A DNA stretch of 43,266 nucleotides from positions 1-43,266 of the IMG/VR virus record IMGVR_UViG_3300045988_018111; one strand, given 5' to 3'. The translations under genes and the position numbers were made by a program. The notes below the pieces were generated by a model. That model made no database searches and was not told the origin of the DNA. It saw only the letters and a list, made by a program, of their open reading frames with translations. Below are positions 17,742 to 43,153 of this stretch, one piece after another. Numbering within the stretch: position 1 is the stretch's first letter; each line of letters opens with the position of its first letter. Source of the stretch: a virus.

Positions 17742-17824
17742 GCCCGTGTAGGGCTTGCAGAGCGCTTTCGCGTGGCTTTCGCCGCCCGCTCCTTCCTTAC
17801 TTTTTCGACCGCTCCAACTCCGGG

Positions 17825-19163: not shown

Positions 19164-19203
19164 TTTTCACGCCCCCTTATTTTTATGGTGTTCTCCATTG
19201 AGC

Positions 19204-19237
19204 CTATCATGCCGCCTCCGCAAATTCACCACGGGGC
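19204..19237 (-). promoter_or_regulatory. Late bipartite motif, site C (GCCCCGTGGTG-N17-TGATAG) upstream of lysis cassette
   Basis: Same geometry as the sites at 38738..38770 and 43121..43153 (see findings). Confidence 0.5.
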
Positions 19238-19273
19238 AAAAGAACCTGTCGGACCACCGACAGGTTCTTTTTC
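19237..19273. terminator. Bidirectional rho-independent terminator after the giant gene
   Basis: aaaa-AGAACCTGTCGG-acca-CCGACAGGTTCT-ttttt, perfect 12-bp stem. Confidence 0.85.
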
Positions 19274-19274
19274 T

Positions 19275-22200
19275 TTACGCCGCTTTCTTCCTCATGATTG
19301 CAAGCTGCTCGTCCACCCGCGCGCGGTTCCAGTGGCGAATGCTCTTCCCGACGCCGAAGTCCTCAAATAGGGCCGCGCGCTGTTTATCGGAAAGCCCCTT
19401 CTGCTGATAAACAAGCTCCATGATCTGTAATCCCTCGCTGTTGCTGATGGTATCACCATTTTTGTCCTTCAGGCTTTCGATCCCGCCTTTTGCCAGATAA
19501 AGCGCAATATACTGGGCTTCTGAAACGCCCGTTTTTTTGACGGTATCTATGGCCTTTGCCGCCCATCCGTCCGTTTGGTAATTGCTCACGCTCATTTTCC
19601 CAACGATGTTGGCATATTCGTAGGCTTTCGCAACGGCATCTGCCTTATCGCCGTCGCTCATGGACTTATAGCTCGCAAGTCCCGTGAGCTCGCTGACGAT
19701 CTTATAGGAAGTCTGCCCGCGCTTTGTGGCGTACTTGACGTATTCCTCGCCGGTCAACTGTTTGTTTTCCTTATTCACGGTAAAAGATTTCGGTGCGCGC
19801 TGCGGCAGGACTTTGGCCTCACCGGTCGCCTCATACAGGCGGCTCAATTCATCTTCCATTTTGCTGCCGCTTACCTTCGAGGTATACGCGGGATTCGCAA
19901 AATTGTTAAATGCCCGCGCGATCACTCCTCCGGAGCTTTCCGTGCGTCCCCATGCGTCGATAAAGGGGATCTGCCCGTAGTCAACGCCCGGAATACGCGC
20001 GCTGGCCTTGCCGAGCGCATATTGCATATCCGGCGTCAGGAATTTGTTCTTATCCGTATAGGTCGTCATGCGCTCGCTTTCGCCCGTGCGCTCCGCCTGC
20101 CCGAAGACCGTCGGGATACCCTGCGTCAAATAACTCGTCGCCGCGCTTGCTACCGCACTGGTTAGTGCGTTTGTGTCCCCGGAGGACGCATACCCCACCG
20201 CGTCAAAAACGTCGTTCAGGCTTTGCAGACAGCTCATGGAAAGAAGCGGGTCCGTCACGTTGCTTGCTGCCTGAAGCATATCACTCATAGTGAGATACCC
20301 GTTGTTCGCCTGCATTTGCTCGTAAAGGTTTGCCCCGACGAAAAACGGAAGCGCTTCCGGCGCAAGCCAATCCAGCGTAATACTCGTGCCATTTGGCAGC
20401 TCCATCGCATATTCCTGATGCCCTTGCAGCTCGTCGAACTTTTTCTTCTTCTCGTCATCACCGCCGCTGCCGCGAAGAATGCCCTCTTTCGCCATATAAA
20501 GGCCGAGCATCATCAGCCCCGTGCCGGTCAGACCGGCGGCGGCACGGTCGATCATTTCGGTCGCCTGCATATTACCCTTCTGCACCTGCACAAGGTCATA
20601 GCTTATGCTTTTGAGGAAACCAATAGGGCTGTATTCCACGCCGCGCACCAGAATGTTGGCTGGTGTCTTGCGGAACGGCAGGATTCCTTCGGCGAGGGTG
20701 CTTCCGAGGCGTTTCATCTTGTTATCCCCGCGGTATCTGCCGAGATCGGAGATCATCTGTGAAAACGCATTGGTGTCTCGATAGGTTGCTTTCTGCGCCT
20801 CTCTGATCGCGTATTCGCGTGCCGCTTCAATGCCTTTCCCGCCAGCGACCTGCTCCGCGGTAATGCCATTTGCTTTGCAGAATTGCGCCAGCGCCGCCGC
20901 GTAATGCGGCTTGGAGAACCATGCGTCTTCCGCATCCAGCGCCGTGCTGTTAGATTTGCGCATCGCTTCCAGCAGCTTTGGTTTGAAGATCGTGCGCCCT
21001 TCCTCGATTTCCTGTCGCACATTGACATTATCATTGTACTTGCCGCTGCCGAGAGCCTGCTCGCGAATGTTGGCATAGTCACTCCATGCCGCCTTGATAA
21101 GCCCTGCGTCCTTCGTCGTCAGGATTGCCTTCGTGCGTCCGACTTTGCCGCCGCTCACCGCGTTCGCAGCGCTCTCAATGCCTGCGCCGATGACGTTCTT
21201 TACCGTGACAGCAGGAACAAATCCTACGTTGCCAACGATGTTGCGCACATGCGTGCGTGGATTACCAAGCATCGAAAAGTAGCGCCAAGCGTTCCATTTG
21301 TCAATGAAGCGGCTCGGCATCTGTCTGCCGATATCGCGATAGATTTCCTTCATCGCCTCGGTGCGCGCATCGTCGTCCTTTGCGTTCAGGAACTTCTCAG
21401 CGAGGTCGCGGTCAATCTCCAGATCAGGGGCCTTTTCCCCGTACTGCTTTTTGAGATCTTCTGTCAAGTTCTCCACGCTGCGCTGCGCCGCATAAAGCTG
21501 CGTACCGGGGTCCTGCTGCTTGAGCAGCCGCGTTGCCTGCAACGCCTGTGCCGCATTTCTCTGGCGCTTTACGATGGTGTCGAGCACATCGATAGCTGTC
21601 TCCACATCACCGCTGTTTGCTGCATTGTTGTAGAGCGCCCAGCCAATCGCCGTATTCTCCTTGCTGATTCCCTCTTTGGTGGAATTTTTCCATTTATTCA
21701 AGGTCTTTTGCCAGCCTTCGGTTTTGATGCGGCTTTCTGCGTCACTGATGGACTGCTTGTCCGTATAGCGGTCGTAGGAGAAATCTCCTTTTGCCACCAT
21801 TCGTTCCAACGTCGGCACCATTGCGTCCGGCGTTGCCTTTGCTTCCAGCACCGTGCGGATCGTGCGGCTGACGTATTTGTCGTCCGCCGTTTTCTTCGGC
21901 ACTTGTACCTCTCGGTACGCGCGCTCGCCCGCCGGGATATATCCGTACTTCTTTTTCAACGTTTCGTAGTTTGCCTCAGGGATCTCGCGGGAGAATGCCG
22001 CGTCATTCACGCTGTTGACTTTTGCTAAACGGTCCGCCTCATCTCCGGCGATATATTCCACCGTGTTGACCCCGGCATCCTGCAATGCGGCTTTCAGACG
22101 GTCGCTGCTGTTGTCCGGGATCACCGCTGCCAAAACTTCGTCAAACCCAACGGCGCGCTGGGGCTTGGCCTCAAAGTAGCCGGTGGGCATTTCCGCCGCC

Positions 22201-25200
22201 TCCTGGTAGACGGCCTGGATGTCCTGGGCCGTCTGGCTGCTGATTTTGTACCCCTCCTTGGAGAAGGCCCGCATGATAGCGTCCACCGTCCTCTTGCCCT
22301 TGGACGTTTCCATCAGGATGCTGCCGATGATGTCGCTCTCGACGAAGGAATTGTCGGAATGAGCCTTGTTTCCCTGCTTGATCTTCGTGATGATGCTGCC
22401 GATCTGGTCATCAATGGCCTGGAGCTTTGCTTCATACTCGGTCCCCTCGTCCATGCCCAGCCGCCCACTGTCCGCCTTGATCTCCTGGATGCTGCGGTAT
22501 TCCGGCGTCGCCACGGATTGCAGGGTCTTGGCGCTTGCGCCCCAGGTGCTGCCGCCGCGCTCCTCCTGGCCCTCCTTCATCGCCTTGACGATGTTCTCCA
22601 GGGTGTAGGCATAGTGGAGCTGCGAGAAACTGCGGAGATTGCCGGAGGGGGTGTAGGGGTCCTTGCCATTGTAGATGCCCGCCTCGCCCAGCAGGCCGTC
22701 CAGCTTCCCGGCAATCCACTCCTCAACGGCGTGGTCATCCACGGAGCTGCGCAGCGCGTCAGAGGTAGCCATCCGGTCAATTTCGCCCTTGGTCGCGCCG
22801 CCGTCCTGGTACATATCCCATGCGTGGTGAACGATGTCCTCCAGGGTGAAGATGGAAACGCCGTCCATGGAATTGTCGATGCGGTTCTGCCGTCTTTCGT
22901 TGATCTCCGCGTCGGTCCAATGCCTCTTGACGGCCATTCTGCGGAGCATGGGTTCGCCCTGTTCCCGGTAGTAGTCCCGGAGAATGTCGCGGATGACCTC
23001 GGCATTCTCGCCCAGGGCGTCCTTCACGCTCTCACCGGTCTCCAGGTTGGCCTCGATTTCAGCCAGCGTGTTCACGCCCAGGCGGTCAACCACCTTTTGC
23101 AGGGTGTCGTTACCGAACTTGTCCCACACCTTGTCCATCTTCACCGGCTCCAGACTCTTGCCCTGGTCTGCCAGATAGGCCGCCCGCACCGTGTCCGTGG
23201 AGGCCAGCTTCTCCGCCAGCTCTGCCGTGCTCCTGGTGCTGGTGTTGTCGATGCCCATAGAGCGCAGGGCGGCGCTGTTCCCGAAGATGCCCCCGGCCAC
23301 GGAGACATCCCCGGCCAGCCGGTGCAGCTCGTGCTCCACCTGGGATGCCTTTTTGCTGTTCACGGGGTAATCTACTCGCGGAGCTGTCGGCGTCCAGGCA
23401 TCGCCACCGTACACCTTGTTGGCGCGGAATAGCTGCGGGTCGATGGTGTCCTTGCTGAACACAAGGGAGATGGGGCCGTACTTGGTGTGCCCGTCCCTGG
23501 CTTTTACAATGGCGATAGAGGGCATGGGCAGGCCGCCCAGCTTCAGCGCGGACATGATGCTGGCCTCATCCTTGTTGTGGACGGCGATCAGTTTGTCAGT
23601 CTCTTCGACCGGCGTTTCCATGCTGAACTTCAGCTTGACATTTTGTACGCCACGAGATAGACTATCTACAGAAGCATTCCCTCGCAGAGCGCCGCTGTCC
23701 GCAGCGGAAGAGCCATTAATTTGGGGGATGCTTCTTTCTTGCATCTGCCCAATATTATAGATCATCTTACCGTCTGCGCTCTGCGCCGTCGATATCGTAA
23801 CCTTGTAATATTTCCCGTCAAAGTCTTTGAAAAACGCCGTGCGATAATTCCAACCGCTACTTGCCATGTCTCCATGTCGACTGTTATGATCTACAACGTT
23901 CCTGTCCCCCTTGACAGAAACCTGCGCCAACTCGTCAATATGCGATGCTGCATTTACTTTTCGCTCAAATGCCGCCTCGCTCATAGTACGCCCATCGCTG
24001 GTGTGGTTGTCGCTCAGTTTCCCTGCCGAGGTCGCAGTCAGAACCAATTCGTCGCCATCCGCGCCGATAAGCTTAACGTCTTGTCCACGGCGGATTTTCC
24101 CGTTAATATAGTCTTCCAGCTGTTCGCTCCAACTCTGCGGGTCATTTCCAAAAATGACCTGTCTGTCGGCGCGGACATACTTTTTGCCATCGGCAGCCTC
24201 TTCAATGCTCGCCCTGCCATTTATTTTGCTTGGCGGCGCACGCGTGCTTTCCTGCGCAACGGTTTCGCTCTCCACCTTGATATGCGCAAGAAGAAACGCT
24301 GCCGCATCGCTGATCTCACTGTCGGCGAAAATGTTCATATCGCCGAGGCTGTCGCAAACCACCTCTTCCCAAATTTCCTGCGCCGTCATTTCGGTGCCGG
24401 CATAAGCGTCTGCATACGCCGTGCAGAGGGAGTCGACCTCACCGCCGGTAAAGGTCTTATCGATGCGCGTGCGTACCTCGTTCAAATCGACTTCGCCCTT
24501 TGCGATCATATCATGTCCGGCCTCATGCCGCATGATCTGGTACGACGTAAATTCCGGATGATCCGCACGGATAAATACGCGGTCACCTGAAACGTAGCCG
24601 CGCACCTGGAACGTTTTCCCGCTCTTGTCACGGAACGTCAGATTATTTCCGGCAAAAAACGTCACGCGCAGGCCGCGCTCTTTGGCGAGGTCCTTCGCCT
24701 TGCGCATTTCCGCCGTCTCGTTCTTCACAAGATAGACGCTGTCATTGAATGCGCCTCTGCCGATGCCGAAGCTCGCAGTGCTTACTTTTTCTCCATAATC
24801 GAGCGAAGCTGCTTCGCTGTCTGCGAAGTGTCGCCCTTCCTTCCGGCCCGGATTTCGTCCTGCGCCTTCTTCCACGCCTCGTACTTCTCCGCGGGGATCC
24901 GCACCGTTATCCCGTTCGCTGCCGTTGCGTAAATGTACTGCTTCTCCATGTTCGGCTCCTTCCTGCTGCGCATATTCTGTGCGCAGCTCATCCATTGTCA
25001 CATCTCCTGTCTCGAGGGCAAGGCGGTTGTCAGTTACATACTTGTCAAAGCCGGTCGCCTGCACCTCTGCGCCTGCGATCTGCTGCTTTGCTGCAATATA
25101 ATCCGTATTGGGGGCAACCGCCGTTCCATCAACAGCAGTGTACCCATTCGTCAGCATGTCGTCAAGAACGATCTCGAGCGTTTTCGCCGCTTTGACATTC

Positions 25201-26957
25201 TCCTGTCCATTATCGTTGATGATGCGCTGCGCTGCATCAATGATTTGCGTGCGCGTCAGGCCCTCGTTCATCGCCTTGCGCATGGCGGGGGTCTCGAATA
25301 TCTGATTGTTTCTCTGGTATCCGTTTGCCGTCCGCTGCCGCGCGCCCTTCTGCTGTCCGCGCGAAAGGCTTATATCAGCGATACCGGCGATCTGCTCTGC
25401 CGCCGTACTGTAATAACCGTGCAGCTCGGGGTGGTCAAACTGGAAAGCGTTTACATTTCTGCTCGATACATTTTCCTTCGTGCGGCTGTCAATATGCTCG
25501 CCCGTTCCTGCCTCTTTCTTCGCGTCGTTCTGCCCCGCGACATAGCCTGCATAGGCCGTCTCATTCGTCGGGTTCGGGTTCGCCTTTCCCTCCACGCCCG
25601 CATTGTAGGCAGGGATAAAGTCCTTCACGTGCTGTGCCGTGTCCTTGCCCTCCTGATACGAGCCGCGAATCGCTTTTCGCCCGCTCTCACCCAGGGAGTT
25701 ATCAAAGCGCGCGAATCGGTTTGCCGCAGCTTCCACGCCGCCACCAATACCGCCGAGAATGCCGCCAACAAGGAAGTCATTCAGAACCTCCGCCGCTTCC
25801 AGCTCGCTGTAACTCCCACCGAGCGTCTTGCCGTTGTAGATCATCTGCAGCGCGGGCTGGACAAGATCCTCGATCACTTCCTCGCCGCCCTCTTCAATGA
25901 ACGACAGCGCGATCTTGCCCGCCGCGCTGTTATTGAGCCCCGACATCGTGCGCTCGATGACGCTATCTAAGAAGCCCCTGCCGAACATTTTCTTGAACGG
26001 CGCTGCCGCGTTGCCGATCTTCTCGGTTGCCACGCTAAGTGCGCCGCTTGCAAAGCCATAGTTGACCTGCTGCTCGTGCGTTGCGCCCTGTCTGCGTGCT
26101 TCCTGCGCGCTTCCGCCCGTACTGCGGACAAACATCGCAGGGAGTGCACTGCCACCCGTCAGAAGCCCGAGAGCCGCGTCCATGCCCATCTGCGCGCCCG
26201 CCACGCCAACGTCGACTGCAAGCCGCCCCGCGCCGCCAAGATCGCGCTTTGCCTTGCTGATGTCCTTTGCGCCGCTGTCGGCGAGTCGGTCGGCGGCCTT
26301 GTAGATGTTGCCCGCCGTGCGCTCCACCTCGCCGCCCTCGCCGTAAGCTTTTAGGTATGCGGCTTTCCGCGCTTCCAGTGCCGCAATGACATTTCGAGCA
26401 GTGTCGCGCTCGCTTTCGGTGCTGCTGGGGTCTGCAAGCACGTCCCGCTGTGCCTTGATATCCTGATCCCACAGGGCAATTTCGGTGTTTGCTTCCTCGC
26501 GTCGCTGCAATCCGCTGCCGGTCTGCGCCATACCGGTAAGGTTGACGAGCCCCGCGCCATAGGTTTTCGCCGCGCCCTTGACGGTGTTGCCGACGCGCTG
26601 CGCGACCGTGGGGGCTTTTACCTCCTGCACGTGCTGTTCGAACGCTTCTTTGCTCTGGTAGTTCTTCGCGTCCTTCTTCTGTAAGGCCCCCTGCGCAAGA
26701 TTCTGCGCAAGCGCGCTTTGATTTTTTGGCGTCACGACATTCTGCCGCGTGCGGAACATGGGGCTGCTCGACTTTGCGGGAATCGTTGCCGCCTTGCTCG
26801 GTTGCACTGTCGGCTTCTTCTGCACCACATTGCCCGTAGGGGATGTGCGCTTCACATCCCCCGTTCTCACAAGCCTGCCGTGCGTGCCGGTTCCAACAAC
26901 CGTCGTCTGGCCCTTGCTCGCTTCCACTTCCGGATTCGCTTTTACTAATCGTCCCAT
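19275..26957 (-). CDS. Giant 2560-aa virion-associated polyvalent-type protein with zincin HEXXH motif
   Basis: Single open frame, GAGGAGGG SD. Hydrophobic Gly-zipper segments (LAVDVGVAGAQMGMDAALGLLTGG; FLVGGILGGIGGGV). IMRHEAGHDM at aa 809..818 (HEAGH at 24513..24527). Late TM-like LTGTGLMMLGLYMA. Its position between tail genes and lysis is typical of ejection/internal proteins. Confidence 0.7.
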   Translation of the reverse strand: MGRLVKANPEVEASKGQTTVVGTGTHGRLVRTGDVKRTSPTGNVVQKKPTVQPSKAATIPAKSSSPMFRTRQNVVTPKNQSALAQNLAQGALQKKDAKNYQSKEAFEQHVQEVKAPTVAQRVGNTVKGAAKTYGAGLVNLTGMAQTGSGLQRREEANTEIALWDQDIKAQRDVLADPSSTESERDTARNVIAALEARKAAYLKAYGEGGEVERTAGNIYKAADRLADSGAKDISKAKRDLGGAGRLAVDVGVAGAQMGMDAALGLLTGGSALPAMFVRSTGGSAQEARRQGATHEQQVNYGFASGALSVATEKIGNAAAPFKKMFGRGFLDSVIERTMSGLNNSAAGKIALSFIEEGGEEVIEDLVQPALQMIYNGKTLGGSYSELEAAEVLNDFLVGGILGGIGGGVEAAANRFARFDNSLGESGRKAIRGSYQEGKDTAQHVKDFIPAYNAGVEGKANPNPTNETAYAGYVAGQNDAKKEAGTGEHIDSRTKENVSSRNVNAFQFDHPELHGYYSTAAEQIAGIADISLSRGQQKGARQRTANGYQRNNQIFETPAMRKAMNEGLTRTQIIDAAQRIINDNGQENVKAAKTLEIVLDDMLTNGYTAVDGTAVAPNTDYIAAKQQIAGAEVQATGFDKYVTDNRLALETGDVTMDELRTEYAQQEGAEHGEAVHLRNGSERDNGADPRGEVRGVEEGAGRNPGRKEGRHFADSEAASLDYGEKVSTASFGIGRGAFNDSVYLVKNETAEMRKAKDLAKERGLRVTFFAGNNLTFRDKSGKTFQVRGYVSGDRVFIRADHPEFTSYQIMRHEAGHDMIAKGEVDLNEVRTRIDKTFTGGEVDSLCTAYADAYAGTEMTAQEIWEEVVCDSLGDMNIFADSEISDAAAFLLAHIKVESETVAQESTRAPPSKINGRASIEEAADGKKYVRADRQVIFGNDPQSWSEQLEDYINGKIRRGQDVKLIGADGDELVLTATSAGKLSDNHTSDGRTMSEAAFERKVNAASHIDELAQVSVKGDRNVVDHNSRHGDMASSGWNYRTAFFKDFDGKYYKVTISTAQSADGKMIYNIGQMQERSIPQINGSSAADSGALRGNASVDSLSRGVQNVKLKFSMETPVEETDKLIAVHNKDEASIMSALKLGGLPMPSIAIVKARDGHTKYGPISLVFSKDTIDPQLFRANKVYGGDAWTPTAPRVDYPVNSKKASQVEHELHRLAGDVSVAGGIFGNSAALRSMGIDNTSTRSTAELAEKLASTDTVRAAYLADQGKSLEPVKMDKVWDKFGNDTLQKVVDRLGVNTLAEIEANLETGESVKDALGENAEVIRDILRDYYREQGEPMLRRMAVKRHWTDAEINERRQNRIDNSMDGVSIFTLEDIVHHAWDMYQDGGATKGEIDRMATSDALRSSVDDHAVEEWIAGKLDGLLGEAGIYNGKDPYTPSGNLRSFSQLHYAYTLENIVKAMKEGQEERGGSTWGASAKTLQSVATPEYRSIQEIKADSGRLGMDEGTEYEAKLQAIDDQIGSIITKIKQGNKAHSDNSFVESDIIGSILMETSKGKRTVDAIMRAFSKEGYKISSQTAQDIQAVYQEAAEMPTGYFEAKPQRAVGFDEVLAAVIPDNSSDRLKAALQDAGVNTVEYIAGDEADRLAKVNSVNDAAFSREIPEANYETLKKKYGYIPAGERAYREVQVPKKTADDKYVSRTIRTVLEAKATPDAMVPTLERMVAKGDFSYDRYTDKQSISDAESRIKTEGWQKTLNKWKNSTKEGISKENTAIGWALYNNAANSGDVETAIDVLDTIVKRQRNAAQALQATRLLKQQDPGTQLYAAQRSVENLTEDLKKQYGEKAPDLEIDRDLAEKFLNAKDDDARTEAMKEIYRDIGRQMPSRFIDKWNAWRYFSMLGNPRTHVRNIVGNVGFVPAVTVKNVIGAGIESAANAVSGGKVGRTKAILTTKDAGLIKAAWSDYANIREQALGSGKYNDNVNVRQEIEEGRTIFKPKLLEAMRKSNSTALDAEDAWFSKPHYAAALAQFCKANGITAEQVAGGKGIEAAREYAIREAQKATYRDTNAFSQMISDLGRYRGDNKMKRLGSTLAEGILPFRKTPANILVRGVEYSPIGFLKSISYDLVQVQKGNMQATEMIDRAAAGLTGTGLMMLGLYMAKEGILRGSGGDDEKKKKFDELQGHQEYAMELPNGTSITLDWLAPEALPFFVGANLYEQMQANNGYLTMSDMLQAASNVTDPLLSMSCLQSLNDVFDAVGYASSGDTNALTSAVASAATSYLTQGIPTVFGQAERTGESERMTTYTDKNKFLTPDMQYALGKASARIPGVDYGQIPFIDAWGRTESSGGVIARAFNNFANPAYTSKVSGSKMEDELSRLYEATGEAKVLPQRAPKSFTVNKENKQLTGEEYVKYATKRGQTSYKIVSELTGLASYKSMSDGDKADAVAKAYEYANIVGKMSVSNYQTDGWAAKAIDTVKKTGVSEAQYIALYLAKGGIESLKDKNGDTISNSEGLQIMELVYQQKGLSDKQRAALFEDFGVGKSIRHWNRARVDEQLAIMRKKAA
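24782..24949 (-). CDS. Embedded +1-frame ORF (55 aa) inside the giant gene
   Basis: AGGAAGGAG lies 6 nt before ATG 24949. MEKQYIYATAANGITVRIPAEKYEAWKKAQDEIRAGRKGDTSQTAKQLRSIMEKK. Third codon positions are strongly G/C as in real genes here, whereas the giant frame over the same bases is A/T at third positions and R/G/E low-complexity. Confidence 0.45.
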   Translation of the reverse strand: MEKQYIYATAANGITVRIPAEKYEAWKKAQDEIRAGRKGDTSQTAKQLRSIMEKK

Positions 26958-28187: not shown

Positions 28188-28194
28188 TGTCCCC

Positions 28195-29781: not shown

Positions 29782-29953
29782 CCGGGCCCTCGCTTTCTTT
29801 CTTCTCTGGCGCTTCCGTGCCGTCGCAGATCATCGCGATATTGCGAAGCGACTGCCGCACCGCCGCCACCACGTCCACCGCGTCGCCGTTGACGTTCAAA
29901 ATGCCGATCAGGCGCATCGCGTGCGCCGCTTCCTGCTTGATCTTTTCATTCAT
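29768..29953 (-). CDS. Small structural-module protein (61 aa)
   Basis: Start trimmed to ATG 29953 (TGGAGGTAAAG SD). The track extension overlaps the upstream gene. Confidence 0.5.
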   Translation of the reverse strand: MNEKIKQEAAHAMRLIGILNVNGDAVDVVAAVRQSLRNIAMICDGTEAPEKKESEGPDETA

Positions 29954-29958
29954 GCTCT

Positions 29959-30438: not shown

Positions 30439-30441
30439 GCC

Positions 30442-31410: not shown

Positions 31411-31416
31411 TTGTCA

Positions 31417-31782: not shown

Positions 31783-31785
31783 ACA

Positions 31786-32586: not shown

Positions 32587-32598
32587 AGTTTCACTCCT

Positions 32599-33726: not shown

Positions 33727-33738
33727 CTCAGTCCCTCC

Positions 33739-35790
33739 TTAGCCGTACACCCAGTTAATGGCGTAGTTTTCGGTTGGCGTGGTCTCCGTTGCAACCAGCG
33801 TCTGCTTGACGATGTTGCCGGATGCGATGTAGTCTATGCCACGCGTCGCCGCAACCAGCCCGCCCGAGCCGTTGCCCTTGATGAGAGAGGTGGTGGAGGG
33901 GACATTGACGGGGCCTGCGGGGCCCTGCGGGCCGGTCGCGCCGGTCTCGCCCTTCGGGCCCTGCTCGCCGGTGTCGCCCTTGGGGCCTTTGATGTTGACC
34001 GTCGCGGGATTCGCAAGCCCGCCGTCGTTCGTCCAACTCAGGTCTCCCACCGCGGACACAGCAGGGGTAAAGGTCGCGCCTTTTGCGCCGTCCGCACCTT
34101 TCGCGCCATCCGCACCGGCGGGGCCCGTCTTGCCTTGGGGACCCGTCAGGCCTTGCGGGCCGGTTTCACCTTGCGGACCAGTCTTGCCCTGCGGCCCCTG
34201 CTCACCCTGCGGGCCCGTCAGGCCTTGCGGGCCGGTTTCACCTTGCGGACCAGTCTTGCCCTGCGGGCCCTGTTCACCCTGCGGACCCCTTGGCCCCTCT
34301 GGTCCGGTATCTCCCTTCGCGCCGTCAGTGCCGGCAGGCCCCCGTGCGCCCGTGTCGCCCTTCGGGCCCTTGAGGTTCACGGTCTGCGGATTCGCCTTGC
34401 CGCCGTCGTTCGTCCACGACAGGTCGCCGTCGTCGCTCATGCTCGGCGTGAACGTCACGCCGTCACGTCCGTTTGTCCCGTCCTTACCCGGCGCACCGTC
34501 TGCGCCGTCTTTCCCAGGCAGGCCGTCCGCGCCCTTTGCGCCGTCCTTGCCGGGGGCTCCATCCGCCCCGGCAGGGCCTTGAGGACCAGTCTCGCCGGGA
34601 TCGCCTTTCGGGCCCTGCGGACCCTCGGGCCCCGTGTCACCTTTCGCGCCCTGCAAGGGGCCGTTGTTGATGAACTCGCCGGTAATACCGTCGAAAATGT
34701 AGATGTCGTAGGGCTCCGCCGTGCCCACGCCGTAGGCATCGCCCGCCGCTGCGGTCGCTTTCTGCGCGGCGTCCAGCGCAGCCTTCGTGCCGTAATAGCC
34801 CAGCACCTTGAAGCCTTTGCCGGTGTCCCCTTTGGGGCCTGCTGGCCCCGTCTCTCCTTGCGGGCCGGTCTGCCCCTGCTGGCCTTGTTCGCCCTTCGGG
34901 CCGCGCGGACCTTCGGGGCCGGTCGGTCCGGTCGCGCCGATGTCACCTTTCTCTCCTTGGGGGCCGGTATCGCCCTTGTCGCCTTTCAGCGCGGCAAGCT
35001 GTGCCGCCGTGAAGTCGGAATAGGTAAAGGCATCGCCCTTGTCGCCCTTTGTGCCCTGCGGGCCAGCGGGGCCAATCTCGCCTTGAATGCCCTGCTCTCC
35101 CTGCGGGCCGCGCGCGCCGGTTTCACCTTTGGGGCCCTGCGGACCGGTCGCGCCGGTTGCGCCGGTCTCGCCTTTTGGACCCTGTGCGCCGGTTGCGCCC
35201 GTGTCGCCCTTGGGGCCGGTCGAGCCTGTGTCGCCCTTTGGTCCCTGTGCGCCGGTGTCGCCCTTGGGGCCGACTTCGCCCTGCGGACCGGTCGCGGCAA
35301 CACCCGTGTCGGCAAAAGCGCCCGCCGTGGCGTCCCACTTGAACCAGTTGCCCGTGGTCTCGTCGACGTATGGCATCTTGGAAACCGCCGTCTCCGCATC
35401 CGCCGCCGCCCGCAAAACTTCATCGACCCAGCTTTGATAGGCCGGAGGCGGTGCCTCTCCGCTGTTTTCCAGCGTTTCGCGCACGCGTGTTTTATATATC
35501 TGGCTCTTCACAATGGTATCGCCAACGGTATAGCGCAGCTCTGCCGCGCCCTCACCGGCCACCGCCGTATCAACACTCGATACCAGCCACACGAGCGCGC
35601 CGTCTTCTTCTGTCACCGTCACGGGATACGGCTGCGCATCGCCGTTTCGCTGCACAATCAGGCTCGCCACGCCCTCGCCATAGCCCTCGCGCCACTTTCC
35701 CAGCACGTCAAAGACGACCTTGCGCGCCTGATTCTCGCCCCTGCGCCCGAGCTTGATCTCTTCGAGCGCGTAAGCATTTTCAATAACCAT
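33739..35790 (-). CDS. Collagen-like (G-X-Y) tail fibre with BppU-N-like N-terminus
   Basis: N-terminal [18 protein letters not shown]...[16 protein letters not shown]. Four long GXY tracts. Duplicated globular inserts G(V/A)[21 protein letters not shown](L/I)KGPKGDTG. Confidence 0.85.
34142..34285. repeat. 72-bp tandem duplication inside the collagen tract (69/72 identical)
   Basis: Units 34142..34213 and 34214..34285 encode [24 protein letters not shown] twice. Confidence 0.9.
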
Positions 35791-35808
35791 GTTGTCACCT
35801 CTCTTATG

Positions 35809-35854
35809 GAAAACGGCGCAGCAAGAGCGACTTTTTCGTCCCTTGCTGCGCCGT
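35809..35854 (-). terminator. Rho-independent (probably partial) terminator between head and tail modules
   Basis: Minus strand ACGGCGCAGCAAG-N16-CTTGCTGCGCCGT, perfect 13-bp stem, followed by TTTTCC. Confidence 0.7.
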
Positions 35855-35892
35855 GTCGCAACTCATTTTTCGTGTCTCGCGGTCGTATTCAC

Positions 35893-36174
35893 TTACGCGT
35901 TGTGGGCCTTCGCGCTCTCAACGTAGTCGCTGCTCATCGTCTGGATGAGATTTGCGGTCGAGGCATCCTGTCTCATCTGGTTCTGGATGGCCCACAGGAA
36001 CTTTCTCTTGACCTGTACGGTCACGCCGCGCTGAATCAGGCAGCTTTCGCCGTTCACGCACACCAGCAGGTCATCCTTGTACTTGCCGCTGTCCTTGAAC
36101 AGGCGGACGCTGACGTACTCCTCGCCCGCGGGGGCGGCGTTCACAGCCGCAACGGCGTTCTTTGCTTCGCTCAT
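35893..36174 (-). CDS. Small head-module protein (93 aa; decoration/unknown)
   Basis: ATG 36174 lies 8 nt after CGGAGGAAAG. The alternative GTG 36213 would add 13 aa. Confidence 0.6.
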   Translation of the reverse strand: MSEAKNAVAAVNAAPAGEEYVSVRLFKDSGKYKDDLLVCVNGESCLIQRGVTVQVKRKFLWAIQNQMRQDASTANLIQTMSSDYVESAKAHNA

Positions 36175-36230
36175 CGGTCTTTCCTCCGTTTCAGTGGCGG
36201 GGGCGGCGTTCACAGCCGCCCCCTTGGTGG

Positions 36231-37490: not shown

Positions 37491-37533
37491 AGAGTTTTGT
37501 CTCCCTTCTTACAGTCGGTAAATTAGGCGGGCA

Positions 37534-38571
37534 TCAGAATACGATGCGCTCGCCGCGCCGAACGCGCCTTGCGATCTCTGCGCGGTCGGCCTTCGTGAAT
37601 TTGCTCGGGTCACTCTTGACAATGACCCCCGGCTGGGAAGTGGTTCCATTCTCGTTCGGGCGCATTCCTTTCGCGCGGACATTGTCCATCACGCGCTTTT
37701 CCATCTCCGCCGCAGCTTTCGCCGCGCTACGAGCCTGAATGTCGCCTAAATGGGATACCTCGTAAGCGTCTTTTACAGGAACGCCAGCACGCAGCATCGC
37801 AATGAAACGCGGATTCTCCGCGACTTCGCGCTTGAGGTCGAAGTCAGGGTACTCGCCCGGTGCGTCCGCCGTGCCGACCAGCTCGCTCGCCTGACGGATC
37901 CAGTCGTTATAAGTCTCGTCGGCTTTCTGCTGGCGCTGCCTGTCTTCTTCCTGGCGTTTGAGCGCTTCGTTTTCCTGCTGCATCCGCGCATACTCGCGGT
38001 ACTGTTCCACGCTCATGCCCATGCTCTCCGCTTCCGCATTGTAGAGCACGCTGTTGAGCGCCGCATCGCCCTCAAAAGCCGCACGCAGCTTACTCATATC
38101 GCCGTCCGACACGCCATAATGGCGCATCAGTGTGTCGATAATGGGCTGCGAATCTGCGATCTTCTGGTCTTTGGCCTTCTCTTCGCCGAATCTGCGGTTG
38201 ATGATGCGCTGCGTCTCCGCGGTATAGACGTCCTTGTATTTGCCGTTTACGAGGTCAAGGAACTCCTTTTTCAGGTCTTCCCTGCCTTTTTCCGCAGCCC
38301 CGGCGTCGTGCTGCTGCATCTTCGCGCCCTCGCCCTTCGGCTCGCCAGAAGAGGTCCCCGTATCGTCAGGTGTCTCCTGCTTGCCGAACACGACGTTGGC
38401 GTATTCGCCCGTTTTGCCCTTCCGGGTGGGAGAAGAGCTTGCATTCGTGGTCTCGCCCTGTGCGCTCGCGCCTCCCTCAGCGCCGCCCGATGCACCGGCA
38501 GCGGTCCCCGCAGCGGCAGCGCCGCCATCAAAGAGACTCAGGATCACGCGAAGCGTAGTTTTGAGGTTCAT
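37534..38571 (-). CDS. Scaffolding protein
   Basis: Start trimmed to ATG 38571 (AGGAGGGA SD). A/G/E/K-rich helical sequence between the portal/protease and capsid genes. Confidence 0.7.
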   Translation of the reverse strand: MNLKTTLRVILSLFDGGAAAAGTAAGASGGAEGGASAQGETTNASSSPTRKGKTGEYANVVFGKQETPDDTGTSSGEPKGEGAKMQQHDAGAAEKGREDLKKEFLDLVNGKYKDVYTAETQRIINRRFGEEKAKDQKIADSQPIIDTLMRHYGVSDGDMSKLRAAFEGDAALNSVLYNAEAESMGMSVEQYREYARMQQENEALKRQEEDRQRQQKADETYNDWIRQASELVGTADAPGEYPDFDLKREVAENPRFIAMLRAGVPVKDAYEVSHLGDIQARSAAKAAAEMEKRVMDNVRAKGMRPNENGTTSQPGVIVKSDPSKFTKADRAEIARRVRRGERIVF

Positions 38572-38737
38572 GGTATCCCTCCTGCTTGTCAAATCGCGGA
38601 TATTCGGCCCTCCGTGTAGGCCGTGCAGCGCTTCCCATCATCCGCAGGGGAGGGGAGAGCGGCGAAAAGATGAAGAAAAACGCCGACCCTCCCTCGCGGG
38701 CGTATGAATAGGAGGAAGCCACTCGCACGCCTAAAGC

Positions 38738-38770
38738 GTAACATGCGGCTTCCTCCGTCTCACCACGGGC
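38738..38770 (-). promoter_or_regulatory. Late bipartite motif, site B (GCCCGTGGTG-N17-TGTTAC) between Prp-like and scaffold genes
   Basis: See findings. Preceded by the A/T tract AAAAAATTTTT. Confidence 0.5.
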
Positions 38771-38782
38771 GAGAAAAATTTT

Positions 38783-39094
38783 TTAATTCTCTTTGACGTG
38801 CACGCAGATCGCGTCCGGCCTCGTGTCTTCCAGCTGCTTGAGCCCGATGCACGCGGCGATGAATGCCGCCTCGATGCGCTCGTCGCCGCCGCAGTGGATG
38901 AGGAAGCGCGGCGCACCATCGTCTATCTCGAAGCCATAGACCTCGCACTCTCCCTCAGCTTCCATGTTCTTCACATAGCCGCCGAAGGCATACATCACAC
39001 CCGTGATGTAATTGCAGCATTTCTCGTCCGCCGAATGTCCTTCGCACAGGATCATGTATCGACCAATTTCGTGCTCGATGTGAACCATCGTCAT
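38783..39094 (-). CDS. Prp-like (ribosomal-processing cysteine protease family) candidate prohead protease
   Basis: Start trimmed to ATG 39094 (GGGGGTG SD). ILCEGHSADEKCCNYITGVMYAFGG gives a His...Cys dyad in a Prp-like context, plus FLIHCGGDERIEAAFIAACIGLKQLE. Portal-adjacent position. Confidence 0.5.
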   Translation of the reverse strand: MTMVHIEHEIGRYMILCEGHSADEKCCNYITGVMYAFGGYVKNMEAEGECEVYGFEIDDGAPRFLIHCGGDERIEAAFIAACIGLKQLEDTRPDAICVHVKEN

Positions 39095-39098
39095 GCAC

Positions 39099-41093
39099 TT
39101 ACACCCCCGGCATTGCCGCGCTGCTTCCCGTGTCCATGTTCGGCTTAGACTGTTCGGCAAGCTTCTGCATGTACGGCGTCTGTGCGCTCTGTGCGTCAGC
39201 GTTCTTGCTCTCAATTCCACCGCTGCCGCTCTTACGTGTCGAGCCGCCACTCTGCGTGCCGCCCGCCGTTCCGATGCCCATGTCCTGTCCCGTAAGCTGC
39301 TGGATAACCGCGAGCGCCTTTTGCAGCTGATCGCTCTGCTGCTGCACGACGTTGTAGAGCGTCGCGCCCTCGTTGACCTGGCTCTTGATCTTGTCGATTC
39401 CTTCGAAGTCCATCATGTCGAGCGCAATCATGCTTTCCTGTGCCCTGTCTGGGGAGAAGAATCCCAGCGAATACAGCTCTTTTGCCCGCTCGTTCTGTTC
39501 CGCACGGGAGAAGGGATTCTTCTTCTGCGCCTTGATCTTGATGTCAAAGACCGGCCTGCGGAACAGGTCATTGCCGAGGCTATCCACACCAGTCACCTGA
39601 TCGCCGAGCTCGTTCACGCCGATCTGCGCATACTCGTAGGGCATTTCATTCGTGATGCGGAAAGTACGCGCTGCGTCGTAGAACTGCCGCATGCGCTCAA
39701 TGCACAGCTTCACGATCTTCGCCTGCGCGCGGTAGCACGCCGAAATCATATCGCGGCTCGCCTTGTTGCCCGCTTCCTGCAATGCGCTGATCGCCGCAGC
39801 AGCTGTCGCGCCGGAGGACGTGCCGCCGTTGGAAACGTCGCGGTTTGCGCTCGTTTCCTTCATCTCGTCGATCTTCATCTGCACGATATTCGCGTAGATG
39901 GAATCGAGCGGGCGCGTCGTTACTTCGCGGAGCCTGCTCTCGTCGATCTGGCCGGACACGTGGATGATCGGCTTGCGCCAGTCAAGGAACTCTTCTTCGT
40001 TGATGTTCAGGCTTTCACTCGCAAAGTACCGGCGCTTGCTGCCCATCATTGAAGTTTCGAGGATGTTGCCCCACAGCTTGTCGATGTAGAGCTGCGGGTC
40101 CTTTGCAATGGCCGTATATCCGAATCCCGCAGGTGTGCCCTTTTCTGGGAACAGCACGTCAAACACGAACGGATATTCGCCGTCTTCGTAGAAGCCGCCC
40201 TCCGCATATTCTGGGTCATTTTCGCTGGCGTAGATGATATGCTCCTCGTCGATAAACTTCGCGTAGTGCAGTACCGTCCTCCCGTCTGTGGCCTTCTTGC
40301 GGTAATACCAGTCGATCACGGCGACCTTGTTGCTCGTGTCCACTGTGTCGTCGTACTCGTATTTTGCCGTTTCAATGCTGCTGCCGCTGAGCTTATCCGC
40401 AAACTGCGGGTATTCGTCCTCGATGATGTCGCGGTCGACGAGCGCCACCGTAAACACGTTGCGGCTCTTCTGGATGTCCTCAATACCCGGCTCCCAGAAG
40501 ATATTCAGCGGGTCAATGCCCTCGATAGCGATGTCGCCGAGCCCGTTGTCTTTCTCCTTGTCCCAAAACACCCCATAGAGCGCCACACCGTGTTTGAGCT
40601 TTTCCCACCACTCGAAGCTGTATGTGCTGTCAAATTCGTTGTATTCCATGATGACCGGCAGCACAGACGAGAGCGTCTGCGCGCTTTCCTCGTCGCTCTG
40701 CTCGCGAGGCAGGCATACGGGCTCGGGGTAGTTGTCCATCGCGTCGGCGTGCTTATTCATGATCGAATTGAACAGCCATGCACTCGCAGGCTCGGGCGAT
40801 TCCCCCGCGTCTTTCGCCCCGCGTCGGATATCCTCCCAATGCCGAAGCTTCCACCAGCGCTCCTCGCTGATGATGCGATTCTCGAAGTTGCTCTTGCCCT
40901 GCTTGTACTTTTGCAGCGTTTCTACGGCGTCACCGATCTCCTTGCTGCCGATGGCTGCGCCGCTGCTCATCGCCGCGTCGCTGTCGCGGAATGCGCCTAC
41001 AAGCGGCGCTTCTGCCTTTGCATCCAACATCGCAGCAGCGCCAGCCGCGTCGGCCTGCTGCTGCGTCTGCGGGAATTTTCTCGTTCCTGCCAT
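39099..41093 (-). CDS. Portal protein
   Basis: 664 aa directly after the large terminase. AGGAGGGGGAAG SD. Acidic and aromatic-rich core typical of portals. The call rests on size, position and general resemblance. Confidence 0.8.
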   Translation of the reverse strand: MAGTRKFPQTQQQADAAGAAAMLDAKAEAPLVGAFRDSDAAMSSGAAIGSKEIGDAVETLQKYKQGKSNFENRIISEERWWKLRHWEDIRRGAKDAGESPEPASAWLFNSIMNKHADAMDNYPEPVCLPREQSDEESAQTLSSVLPVIMEYNEFDSTYSFEWWEKLKHGVALYGVFWDKEKDNGLGDIAIEGIDPLNIFWEPGIEDIQKSRNVFTVALVDRDIIEDEYPQFADKLSGSSIETAKYEYDDTVDTSNKVAVIDWYYRKKATDGRTVLHYAKFIDEEHIIYASENDPEYAEGGFYEDGEYPFVFDVLFPEKGTPAGFGYTAIAKDPQLYIDKLWGNILETSMMGSKRRYFASESLNINEEEFLDWRKPIIHVSGQIDESRLREVTTRPLDSIYANIVQMKIDEMKETSANRDVSNGGTSSGATAAAAISALQEAGNKASRDMISACYRAQAKIVKLCIERMRQFYDAARTFRITNEMPYEYAQIGVNELGDQVTGVDSLGNDLFRRPVFDIKIKAQKKNPFSRAEQNERAKELYSLGFFSPDRAQESMIALDMMDFEGIDKIKSQVNEGATLYNVVQQQSDQLQKALAVIQQLTGQDMGIGTAGGTQSGGSTRKSGSGGIESKNADAQSAQTPYMQKLAEQSKPNMDTGSSAAMPGV

Positions 41094-41108
41094 GTCTTCC
41101 CCCTCCTG

Positions 41109-42539
41109 TCAGTTGTGTTGGAACCACGCATATTTGTCGTAGCTCGGCGTATTGATGTCCAGCGGGTCGTACAAGACCGGCTTCGGCGGCTTATTTACCC
41201 GCGCCGCAATGGGATTCTCCATGCACACATAGCGTGTCATGTCGTAGATATGATCCTCCTGCTCGGTGTTCACGTCCTCAACGTCCTTTTCGTCATAAAC
41301 GAGGTTTGGAACCGTTCGGATGAAATTCTTGCACGTATCGAAGATATACAGCATCGGCACGCCGTTCTCATCAAACGCGAATCGGTTGTGCAGCTGCATC
41401 TTGCCGTCGATGCGGGCGTTATCCCCCTTCTCGAAGTAGACGCGCTCGCGCTCAAAGAGCGATCCGATGCTCTCCGTACCCTGCGTGCCCCAGATCGCGG
41501 GGTCGCCCACACGGAAGATGTGCCGCCCCTTGAGATTCGGGTCTTCTGCCTCAATGCGCTTCATCTCGCGGGCCACTGCCGTCGGTTCCATCTTCACGCC
41601 CTCGTTCGGTGTGCCCGTGCAGCCGTAATATTCCCGGATGTGGTAGAGCCGCCTATCTTGGTCGACCGCGAACCAGCCGATGGCAAACGGCCTTGAATAG
41701 CCCCAGTCCATTGCGCACCAGATTGGCCACTCGCGTGGGATTTGGAACGGCGCGATGACGTGCGTATGGATGCGGTCGCGGTAGTGTTCGTTGTCATTGC
41801 GCCACTCGGTAAACACCTGCCCGGAGAACGTATCCCAATCGCCGTAGAGCAGTGCGTTCTTCTCCGCCTCCGGCATCGACGCAAGGCGCGTCAAATAGCT
41901 GTCGTCGTTCTTGAGCAGTATCTTATTGTCGAATACCGTGCTCGGAACAAAGATGCGGCTCTTCTGCCGATGTTCTTCGTGCCCATCTGGAAAGCGCACG
42001 ACGGCATCCTCGCGGATGGTCCTCATCGGAGGCGCTGCCGTGATGAAACGTTCCTTGACCCATCCGTGCCCCACACCGCCGGGGTTCGCCGTGCTGCGGA
42101 TATACACCCGCGTCCCCGGCCCGTTCGGTCGGTTGCGGGAAAAGAGGTAGCTGTATTCTTCCCATGTAAAGTGGGTCAGCTCGTCGAATGCGATAAAGTC
42201 ATACGCCTGTCCCTGATACTTGATCTTGTCCTTTGCATACTGCATCGAGCCGAAGATGATTTTTGCCCCGCTCGGGAATGTCCATGTGTGGCTGCTGCCG
42301 TTGTAGCGCGCGCCCGGATAGATACGCGGGTAGTAGTTCAGCGTCTTGTCAATGAGCTCGGCAAGCTGTGGGAAGGTCTTTCGCAGGATGATTGCCTTGT
42401 AATACGGGATATTTACTTGACGCAATGCCTCGATGACCAACGCATCGGATTTCCCCCCGCCTAACCGGCTGCGCCGCCGTATAGTGCCTCGTCCTCCCAG
42501 CGGCTCATAAAGAGCGCCTGCTTGGGCTGCGGCTTCCAT
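41109..42539 (-). CDS. terL: Terminase large subunit
   Basis: Walker A-like LGGGKSDAL, FIAFDELTHF (Walker B/coupling), and a C-terminal nuclease part with WGYSRPFAIGWF...DTCKNFIRT. Confidence 0.9.
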   Translation of the reverse strand: MEAAAQAGALYEPLGGRGTIRRRSRLGGGKSDALVIEALRQVNIPYYKAIILRKTFPQLAELIDKTLNYYPRIYPGARYNGSSHTWTFPSGAKIIFGSMQYAKDKIKYQGQAYDFIAFDELTHFTWEEYSYLFSRNRPNGPGTRVYIRSTANPGGVGHGWVKERFITAAPPMRTIREDAVVRFPDGHEEHRQKSRIFVPSTVFDNKILLKNDDSYLTRLASMPEAEKNALLYGDWDTFSGQVFTEWRNDNEHYRDRIHTHVIAPFQIPREWPIWCAMDWGYSRPFAIGWFAVDQDRRLYHIREYYGCTGTPNEGVKMEPTAVAREMKRIEAEDPNLKGRHIFRVGDPAIWGTQGTESIGSLFERERVYFEKGDNARIDGKMQLHNRFAFDENGVPMLYIFDTCKNFIRTVPNLVYDEKDVEDVNTEQEDHIYDMTRYVCMENPIAARVNKPPKPVLYDPLDINTPSYDKYAWFQHN

Positions 42540-42545
42540 ACCACG

Positions 42546-43016
42546 CTACGCTTCGCCATTCGCATCACCTCCCGCGTCCTGCGGAGCAGGCATCACCGCG
42601 GGCAGCTCTGCCACGCCGCACACGCTCTCTCCGCCGTCTTCCTTCTTCTCGTCATTTACCCAGCGGAAATTGTATCTCAGGCTGAATTCAGCGCCACGCT
42701 GGCCGTCTCGGTCGAAGAGCCGTTCCTCTGCGTAAGCCTCGATGCGAGACTTCGCGCGCGTAACCGTGTCAACAAATCCTTTCTTTGCCTGATAGTTCAG
42801 CAGCGCCTGCCTGCTCGTAAATCCCAGCGCAAGCGCGAGCCCCGTCACCGTCGGTGGGCGCTGATGAATGATAAACGGCTGCCCGAATTTGTCGAGGATT
42901 GGCATACCATCGTCCCCTATGATCGGCTCGCCCTTGCAATCCTCGAAGTATTGGTCAATGACGGCCTGCATTTCTTCGACCGTCGCATATTTGGGATGAC
43001 ACCCTGCTTTTGCCAT
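42546..43016 (-). CDS. terS: Terminase small subunit
   Basis: PPTVTGLALALGFTSRQALLNYQ HTH-like motif typical of gp3/P27-type small terminases. Immediately upstream of terL. Confidence 0.8.
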   Translation of the reverse strand: MAKAGCHPKYATVEEMQAVIDQYFEDCKGEPIIGDDGMPILDKFGQPFIIHQRPPTVTGLALALGFTSRQALLNYQAKKGFVDTVTRAKSRIEAYAEERLFDRDGQRGAEFSLRYNFRWVNDEKKEDGGESVCGVAELPAVMPAPQDAGGDANGEA

Positions 43017-43120
43017 GCCGCCACCGCCTTTCTTTTTTATGCTGCAAGCCCCCCGTCCTCGGCCTTATCGCACAGCATTCTTATCCCCCGCTCGGGGAAC
43101 CGAGCTTCCTATTTCCGACG

Positions 43121-43153
43121 GTAACACGCCATCTTTTATTTCTCACCACGGGC
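43121..43153 (-). promoter_or_regulatory. Late bipartite motif, site A (GCCCGTGGTG-N17-TGTTAC) about 100 nt upstream of terS
   Basis: See findings. The upstream half is also present in the left terminal copy (17..28). Confidence 0.5.

Follow-up and report, generated by a model that had tools for sequence, protein, structure and literature searches.

A conserved upstream box at three predicted sigma-A-type late promoters of a phage most likely from gut Oscillospiraceae

The viral genome IMGVR_UViG_3300045988_018111 was analyzed over its whole stretch of 43,266 nt, hereafter the window. It carries the bipartite motif GTGGTG-N17-TG(A/T)TA(C/G) in front of its late genes, and the question raised by this motif is which RNA polymerase reads it and whether a phage protein takes part. 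The first-pass annotation, made from the letters of the DNA alone, considered the motif to be a dedicated class of late promoters not read by sigma-A. According to our analysis, the three motif sites, designated A, B, and C, are probably late promoters of the sigma-A type whose activity would require a factor that binds the box, located at about −43 to −32. We assign this reading, which is based on sequence comparison, a probability of roughly 0.6.

A pattern scan of the window for GTGGTGN17TGWTAS revealed exactly three matches, as had been claimed, at 43121–43149 (site A), 38738–38766 (site B), and 19204–19232 (site C), all of them on the minus (late) strand; not a single match was found in 100 dinucleotide-preserving shuffles of the window (0/100). 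The 17-nt spacing is observed in 3/3 sites, the flanks GCCC/CCCC are as quoted in the first-pass annotation, and the spacers of sites B and C do share CGGAGG and GCA. When up to three mismatches were allowed in CCCGTGGTG-N17-TGWTAS, only three extra matches appeared, each with three mismatches, at a chance expectation of 2.5. One of these chance-level matches, at 3680–3711, is the looser copy in the methylase gene that had been noticed previously. Each of the sites lies in a non-coding gap at the head of a late gene block, with terS following site A, the scaffold gene following site B, and the lysis genes following site C; sites A and C are preceded by terminator-like hairpins. The shared box is present in a single copy at each site. 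The motif sites are real and beyond chance, specific in strand and position, and conserved.

Site A (43118..43153, minus strand) is the predicted late promoter of the packaging block, which includes terS, terL, the portal gene, and a gene encoding a 155-aa protein. It comprises the box GCCCGTGGTGAGA at 43153–43141, the −35-like hexamer GTGAGA at 43146–43141, TGT at 43126–43124, and the −10 hexamer TACCGT at 43123–43118, and its transcription start is predicted at about 43110–43113. Site B (38735..38770, minus strand), a predicted late promoter that precedes the scaffold gene and the major capsid gene, is located in the 190-nt gap before the former. Its box, also GCCCGTGGTGAGA, occupies 38770–38758 with an A/T-rich tract directly upstream, TGT and the −10 hexamer TACGCT occupy 38743–38735, and the start is predicted at about 38728–38731. 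Site C (19201..19237, minus strand) is the predicted promoter of the lysis block, which contains the XhlA-like gene, the holin-like gene, the amidase gene, and the gene of a 79-aa protein. It consists of the box CCCCGTGGTGAAT at 19237–19224 (the span quoted in the first-pass annotation has one more G) and TGA with the −10 hexamer TAGGCT at 19209–19201; the predicted start is at about 19194–19196.

All three sites contain TGnTAnnnT (TGTTACCGT, TGTTACGCT, and TGATAGGCT), with the TG at −15/−14, T at −12, A at −11, and T at −7, and the final T is found in 3/3 sites, though it was outside the search pattern. This is an extended −10 element, in the window of the form TGnTA(C/G)nnT, and TGnTAnnnT is characteristic of regions 2.4 and 3.0 of housekeeping-type sigma factors. 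The hexamers located 17 bp upstream of the −10 hexamers are GTGAGA, GTGAGA, and GTGAAT, which coincide with TTGACA in four, four, and three of six positions, respectively. Five to six invariant bases, (G/C)CCCGTG, extend the box to an asymmetric element of 12–13 bp at about −43 to −32. The −10 hexamers themselves are poor (3/6), and a simple promoter scan with a threshold of 9/12 misses all three sites. The likely −10 element and the second box of the first-pass annotation are out of register by 3 nt. Of its promoter hypothesis, the geometry, the orientation, the position at the heads of gene blocks, and the bipartite conservation stand; the statement that the sites are not sigma-A promoters and that their hexamers are far from TTGACA/TATAAT is only half true, given the TGnTAnnnT, the 3–4/6 match with TTGACA at 17 bp, and the hexamer TACGAT in one of the relatives.

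A scan of viral contigs with the motif yielded more than 104 loci, mostly belonging to one human-gut phage lineage. At the orthologous sites of diverged relatives, both boxes are kept, while the spacers, flanks, and leaders have changed. Variants of site A that differ in the spacer or leader were found in loci L002, L011, L077, and L246, and in L077 the 80-nt leader is deleted. Site B has the form TCCCGTGGTGA-aacggagaaaaccccg-TGTTACGCT in L011; in L002, L043, and L059, TGCTACGCT is located one base further off, which gives a spacing of 18, and in L187 the site reads GGGTACGAT, where the TG is gone and the hexamer is improved to TACGAT. Variants of site C are present in L072 and L054, and its orthologues occur in about 43 lysis-region loci of close relatives. 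Tolerance of one base in the spacing, together with the loss of TG offset by a better hexamer, is typical promoter behavior. The change in L187 is the kind expected of a sigma-A −10 element.

A motif search in related phages, suggested as a check together with the initial claim, revealed a conserved form of the motif upstream of terS and the scaffold gene in distant phages as well. A search with the portal protein, taking one genome per species, gave 80 loci (1.18 Mb) with portals 48–94% identical, almost all from Oscillospiraceae (Oscillibacter, Pseudoflavonifractor, Flavonifractor, and others). The best match (94%) is encoded by a 45-kb contig binned with Oscillibacter sp. ER4; since this contig is phage-sized, the host assignment is tentative. 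In the 80 loci, the pattern [G/T]GG[T/C]GA[A/G]-N14-16-TGnTAnnnT has 25 matches on the strand of the genes and a single one on the other, against about 1.7 per strand expected from first-order Markov simulations. In loci whose portals are 49–60% identical, the matches are located mainly about 2.1 kb upstream of the portal gene, i.e., before terS, and just downstream of it, i.e., before the scaffold gene. The family consensus is cG[G/T]GG[T/C]GA[A/G]A-N14/15-TGnTA[C/T]GCT, with the −35-like form G[T/C]GA[A/G]A at 17–18 bp. Several bases outside the pattern are conserved too: G at box position −1 (23/28), A at box position +7 (24/28), G at −9 (22/28), and C at −8 (19/28). Judging by these matches, GTGGTGA of the window is one lineage's variant of the family box GGGG(T/C)GAAA.

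Thirteen distant site B regions were gathered independently of the motif, via the conserved leader word GTCCTCC. The −10 hexamer is located exactly 6 nt before GTCCTCC in 12 of the 13 and 7 nt before it in the remaining one, a constant distance that fits a fixed transcription start. In these regions, TG is present in 10/13, TA in about 12/13, and the final T in 12/13. As for the leader word itself, the distant phages L192–L217 retain GTCCTCC(TG) 6 nt past the −10 element of site B, precisely where the scaffold mRNA is predicted to begin; it is complementary to a GGAGG ribosome-binding site and may be a 5′ stabilizer or a translational control element.

A position weight matrix was constructed from 28 non-redundant family sites. 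The terminal duplicate of the window was removed before scoring, which cut off site A. Site B scored 27.6 bits and site C 24.5 bits, and all other positions of the genome scored no more than 14.9 bits. The next-best matches, at 14–15 bits, are 12204–12170 (minus strand; CGTGGCGAAAT-N13-GTATATGAT) in the lysogeny region and 1167–1133 (minus strand; GCGGGCGAAAA-N12-TGCTATGAA) before the Tad2-like gene. Both are probably chance matches, with an off-consensus spacing or no TG.

We propose that the host sigma-A RNA polymerase would read the TG and the −10 part of these sites, and that the box would stand in for a good −35 element and serve as the target of a phage-specified factor. Such a factor may contact RNA polymerase from a position overlapping the −35 region, as in class II activation, or, alternatively, it may take over the job of sigma region 4, as at the T4 middle promoters. 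In this way, the promoters would stay off in the lysogen, and the genes for packaging, for the head and tail, and for lysis would be turned on at the same time. We infer from the sequence that the sites fire, where they start, that sigma-A is used, that an activator is needed, and which protein this activator may be; the cis element, its conservation, its sigma-A-type geometry, and its tolerance of one base in the spacing are observed directly.

Several points weigh against this scheme. In the family sites, the inner −10 positions favor G and C (TAYGCT), unlike the A/A of TATAAT; this could mean another sigma factor or selection for low basal activity. A 4/6 match with the −35 consensus together with the TG might allow sigma-A to fire unaided. 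An unrelated contig with a G+C content of 47%, L028 (IMGVR_UViG_3300025141_000268), has four or five (T/G)GGTGAA-N15-TGGTATAAT sites on one strand, each preceding small genes and combining the −35-like word with a perfect extended −10 element, so GGTGAA could be a tolerated −35 variant and not a factor site. Finally, no matches with RinA, ArpU, Ltr, MotA, AsiA, or Q-like proteins were found among the scanned proteins.

Given these points, other explanations have to be weighed. The sites may be plain sigma-A promoters that use no activator, with the late timing set in another way, for instance through the copy number of the genome, relief of repression, or control by read-through and terminators. 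A 3–4/6 −35 element with a 17-bp spacer, TG, and TAnnnT can suffice for transcription, as in the −35/TGn and TGn/−10 promoter classes (PMC2988021); the A/T-rich DNA upstream of site B and the early-looking character of the small genes behind the L028 sites also agree with this explanation. We still find it unlikely: the invariant (G/C)CCCGTG at about −43 to −37 and the family-wide G at box position −1 are not explained by sigma region 4, the −10 hexamers are uniformly poor, and the early promoters of the same phage use TTGACT. Besides, a temperate phage must keep the promoters of the terS, capsid, and lysis genes silent in the lysogen. The opposite possibility, put forward in the first-pass annotation, is a dedicated class independent of sigma-A, read by an alternative sigma factor or a phage-modified polymerase, with the 79-aa protein or the helix-turn-helix (HTH) proteins as the specificity factor. 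It agrees with the 11-bp upstream box, which does not differ between the three sites and makes a poor −35 element, with the G/C bias of the inner −10 bases, and with the confident sigma region-4 fold of the 79-aa protein (predicted local distance difference test score, pLDDT, of 93), including a match to a complex with −35 DNA. A region-4-like family of activators, LtrA, works on the terS promoters of phages from staphylococci and enterococci (PMC3753634). Against it, the TGnTAnnnT found here carries the housekeeping signature and no sigma region-2 protein is encoded, which means that the genome has no complete sigma factor; in addition, as shown below, the distribution of the 79-aa protein differs from that of the motif, and homologues of the HTH proteins were not found near terS in L246 and L011, which have the exact box. 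This possibility is therefore quite doubtful. A reading of site A as a promoter of the extracytoplasmic function (ECF) type, GTGAGA...CGTC, was also rejected: CGTC lies 20 nt after GTGAGA, which is the wrong spacing, and is absent from sites B and C. By the definition tested (an AAC-core −35 element, CGT in the −10 element at about 16–17 bp, and a protein with regions 2 and 4), the promoters of ECF sigma factors would need a region-2 domain, and none was found among the encoded proteins.

The motif might also be no promoter at all and act in RNA or bind a protein, for instance in processing, antitermination, or packaging. The argument for this comes from site B, whose spacer and −10 element are enclosed in a hairpin of 46 nt (38711..38756, minus strand; GGAGGAAGCC ... 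GGCTTCCTCC) that can form only in read-through transcripts of the portal operon. The fold of the region 38640–38790 is very stable (z = −6.4), four of its pairs show compensatory changes across six orthologues, and the scaffold leader contains another hairpin further on, with a T-rich tract. However, nothing comparable is seen at sites A and C, L077 lacks the site A leader altogether, the spacer of site B in distant phages is not complementary to the leader, and an Rfam search of the whole window gave no match at E values up to 1. Conservation is confined to the two boxes, between which the spacer varies and has a slack of one base, which is how promoters behave, and a non-promoter role of the motif is accordingly very improbable. 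The site B hairpin in its own right could be a processing or 3′-end element or a switch between the read-through transcripts and those from promoter B. Least probable of all, and hardly to be expected, is that a host regulator such as Spo0A reads the box and ties late expression to the physiology of the host. The Spo0A box TGNCGAA is similar to the family form GGGCGAA/TGGCGAA and can overlap the −35 element, as at spoIIG. The box described here likewise overlaps the −35 region, and about half of the distant sites read GGGCGA(A/G), while two others have TGGCGA(A/G). Yet the boxes of the window, TGGTGAG and TGGTGAA, have T at the key C position, which departs from the Spo0A box; GGGTGAA is common among the distant sites, the first position mostly has G instead of T, and no second or inverted box was seen.

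If a phage-specified factor binds the box, which protein could it be? The first-pass annotation named the 79-aa protein (17502..17741, minus strand), which consists of a sigma region-4 domain only. Its Pfam match with Sigma70_r4_2 is 28.6 bits at a cut-off of 25.7, and the protein belongs to a family of about 80-aa proteins from gut phages. The AlphaFold model (pLDDT 93) is most similar in the PDB to region 4 of ECF sigma factors (SigR region 4, SigD4, and sigma-E region 4 on −35 DNA), with target-normalized template modeling (TM) scores of 0.7–0.8 and weak E-values of 0.08–0.3. The distribution of the protein does not follow that of the motif. Its homologues, 73% and 54% identical, are encoded by L185 and L186, near-complete genomes without the motif. 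In 26 further loci with homologues 77–81% identical, there is no motif within 10 kb on either side, and the lysis genes abut a tail gene with no promoter gap. In L054, an identical box occurs beside an allele that is 66% identical and differs in its recognition helix, SVDAVKKYRQRAYHKI vs. SPEYVKTRRRRAYSKI. In L271–L273, the region-4 gene comes after the giant gene and before the lysis genes, and no promoter precedes it, a position indicating that the homologue there is a late product, and in the window, too, it is a late gene. On co-occurrence and covariation, the 79-aa protein was rejected as the leading candidate for the box reader. It can be noted that the ATG of its gene at 17741 has no clear ribosome-binding site, and that a Shine–Dalgarno-like AAGGAAGGAG at 17788–17797 (minus strand), 47 nt before this ATG, has no start codon at a usable distance. 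The giant gene of L271–L273 encodes about 2,500–2,560 aa, and one of the giant proteins has a match with the ART-PolyVal domain.

The three HTH proteins (4069..4986), also proposed as trans factors, fared no better, their homologues being absent near terS from phages with the exact box: neither the 5.1 kb that precede terS in L246 nor the corresponding region of the L011 group contained any, though they may be encoded elsewhere in these genomes. The products e85, e68, e158, and e181 were likewise rejected, since they are present at 61–96% identity in the motif-less L185. This phage (MT835513.1) has a tRNA-Gly(ccc) at 17087–17168, within the long non-coding stretch before the packaging genes.

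Phages bearing the motif share a trio of genes at the end of the replication module, which encode a 68-aa protein with four Cys residues, a coiled-coil protein, and a DUF1064 protein. In the window, the 68-aa protein, designated cys70, is encoded at 5999..6205 (minus strand) by a gene that starts with GTG overlapping the stop codon of the G39P-like gene, and the adjoining coiled-coil protein is encoded at about 5628–6010 (minus strand). The two genes are the last ones before the terS promoter in L194 and L204, and both are absent from L185 and L186. The four-Cys family, recorded in the window and in loci of the range L187–L262, includes 343 clusters at 50% identity; these are unannotated proteins of 65–80 aa with the motif CP[F/Y][F/Y]..CEG..C..C. 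Neither cys70 nor the coiled-coil protein showed a Pfam, PHROG, or PDB sequence match, and the AlphaFold model of cys70 (pLDDT 51) is too poor to use. The co-occurrence of cys70 with the motif is suggestive, but it is confounded by linkage and by the fact that the pattern misses variant boxes. In L231, L244, L253, and L257, the four-Cys gene lies directly before terS or terL with no box promoter, which makes a packaging role equally possible. As a box-reading factor, cys70 is a speculative candidate. These four loci have a layout of their own (L231, 7700–8500; L244, L253, and L257, 7000–8100), in which a repressor-controlled TTGACx-17-TATAxT promoter is followed by the four-Cys gene and then by terS or terL; they are compact, with no replication module between, and resemble satellites.

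Among the closest known analogues of the predicted promoters are the T4 middle promoters, which combine a sigma-70 −10 element, with TGn in about half of them, and an activator box replacing the −35 element (PMC2988021). The similarity lies in the host-type −10 element, often with TGn, in the short asymmetric phage box at −35, and in the switching on of a later gene class. However, the MotA box (a/t)(a/t)(a/t)TGCTTtA is unrelated to CCCGTGGTGAGA found here; it is separated from the −10 hexamer by 12 ± 1 bp, whereas the box of the window ends about 15 bp from it. T4 middle promoters also need an excellent −10 element, and those described here are poor. No homologues of MotA or AsiA were found among the scanned proteins in Pfam, PHROG, and NCBIfam.

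The late activators of Gram-positive phages include a family similar to sigma-70 region 4, LtrA (PMC3753634). The systems of the Ltr type (RinA, ArpU, LtrA, LtrB, and LtrC) resemble the one described here in that they belong to temperate phages of Firmicutes and act at a promoter upstream of terS, after a terminated early operon; LtrA is also region-4-like, as is the 79-aa protein. In turn, Ltr genes are located immediately upstream of terS, while the region-4-like gene of the window follows the lysis genes and does not track with the motif. No Ltr-type gene was found before terS in the window, where the genes encode a coiled-coil 158-aa protein, the Tad2-like protein, and small unannotated proteins. 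In the Ltr systems, the activator binds direct repeats ahead of a single late promoter that drives the genes from packaging to lysis. The window has three predicted promoters, each with one copy of the box over the −35 region, and repeats of another element lie upstream of site A alone; A and C are separated from the preceding genes by terminator-like hairpins. As for control of the lambda Q type, which involves a qut site and a terminator shortly after the promoter, no hairpin with a T-run was found downstream of site A or C, and the scanned proteins include no Q-like protein.

With ordinary extended −10 promoters of sigma-A, the sites share TG at −15/−14, T at −12, A at −11, and T at −7, not only in 3/3 sites of the window but in nearly all family members. 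Such promoters lack an invariant upstream box of 11–13 bp and G/C at −9/−8, both of which are present here. The late promoters controlled by Mu C/Mor and P2 Ogr are of class II and, like the predicted promoters of the window, have a weak −35 element, an activator site abutting or overlapping it, and a box shared by several promoters. Their activator sites are dyad-symmetric or located further upstream, and the activators are unrelated. The sites of the window would work like T4 middle promoters or Ltr-controlled late promoters, yet they fail the defining features of both. In the searchable literature, no description of this promoter family or its consensus was found. More tentatively, and with a rather low probability, the sites may represent an undescribed class of late promoters shared by phages of gut Oscillospiraceae, in which a small uncharacterized phage protein reads the 12-bp box at −43 to −32 and redirects the host sigma-A polymerase, as a counterpart in Firmicutes of the sigma appropriation by AsiA and MotA in T4; the reader could be the 68-aa four-Cys protein with its coiled-coil neighbor or the stand-alone sigma region-4 domain, which would replace region 4 of the host sigma factor.

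Transcription in phages of gut Clostridia is almost unknown because their strictly anaerobic hosts are rarely cultured. With the late-promoter consensus, one can locate where the packaging and head operons begin in phage genomes from metagenomes, annotate such genomes by pattern search, and follow induction in metatranscriptomic data. The consensus also poses a concrete biochemical problem, namely, which protein reads the box. If the reader is indeed a new small protein acting on sigma-A, this would be a new phage route to RNA polymerase takeover; if sigma-A alone suffices, the sites would form an ordinary promoter family with an unusual −35 region.

The source of the window is most likely a temperate phage of gut Oscillospiraceae. 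Bases 1–141 are an exact direct repeat of 43126–43266, which corresponds to a circular assembly and a genome of 43,125 bp with a G+C content of 57%. Due to this 141-nt terminal duplication, site A runs across the junction, and positions 1–28 hold a truncated second copy. The close relatives in GenBank are only unannotated human-fecal contigs with 65–69% identity. The lysogeny block, with an HTH protein and the integrase, is on the plus strand, and the promoters of the switch region are canonical for sigma-A (TTGACT-17-TATAAT and TTGACT-17-TATACT).

The early operon extends on the minus strand from about 11208 to 200 and encodes an HTH protein, an antirepressor, YqaJ, RecT, SSB, a Lin1244-like protein, the G39P-like protein, the DUF1064 protein, the three HTH proteins, methylases, an ASCH protein, and the Tad2-like (anti-Thoeris) protein, whose gene (673–1140, minus strand) is located at the end of the operon. 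A putative terminator, read from the sequence as a hairpin with a T5 run (166..199, minus strand), directly follows the last early gene (200–676) and lies between the early operon and site A. Unlike the other two sites, site A is preceded by an A/T-rich element with the direct repeats TGTATCTA and TGTATGTA at 43190–43233 (minus strand), 40–85 nt upstream of the box. This element is conserved across the lineage of the window and could be a second regulator site, similar to Ltr-like repeats, or a packaging signal. A different repeat is found in L190, where six copies of a 50-nt tandem repeat (7723–8037) are located upstream of terS.

The late genes on the minus strand encode TerS, TerL, a P22-like portal, the scaffold, the capsid, a collagen-repeat protein, tail proteins, and a 2560-aa protein, followed by the XhlA-like protein, the holin-like protein, the amidase, and the 79-aa sigma region-4 protein. 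The first gene downstream of site A is terS (42546..43016, minus strand), which belongs to the GP3_package family. The scaffold-like gene (37534..38571, minus strand), with GGAGGG preceding its ATG at 38571, is the first one downstream of site B, and the XhlA-like gene (18861..19163, minus strand) is the first one downstream of site C, 40 nt away; the amidase gene (17825–18469, minus strand) lies downstream of the latter. A terminator-like hairpin, AACCTGTCGG..CCGACAGGTT followed by CTTTT (19241..19268, minus strand), is located after the gene of the 2560-aa protein, 7 nt before the site C box, and a further terminator-like hairpin of the late region, at about 35852–35815, has no motif behind it. 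The head genes are followed by the gene of the 683-aa collagen-repeat protein (33739–35790, minus strand); the 2560-aa protein (19275–26957, minus strand) is encoded by the last gene of the tail region, and a BclA_C-like protein is encoded after the lysis block (15694–16167, minus strand).

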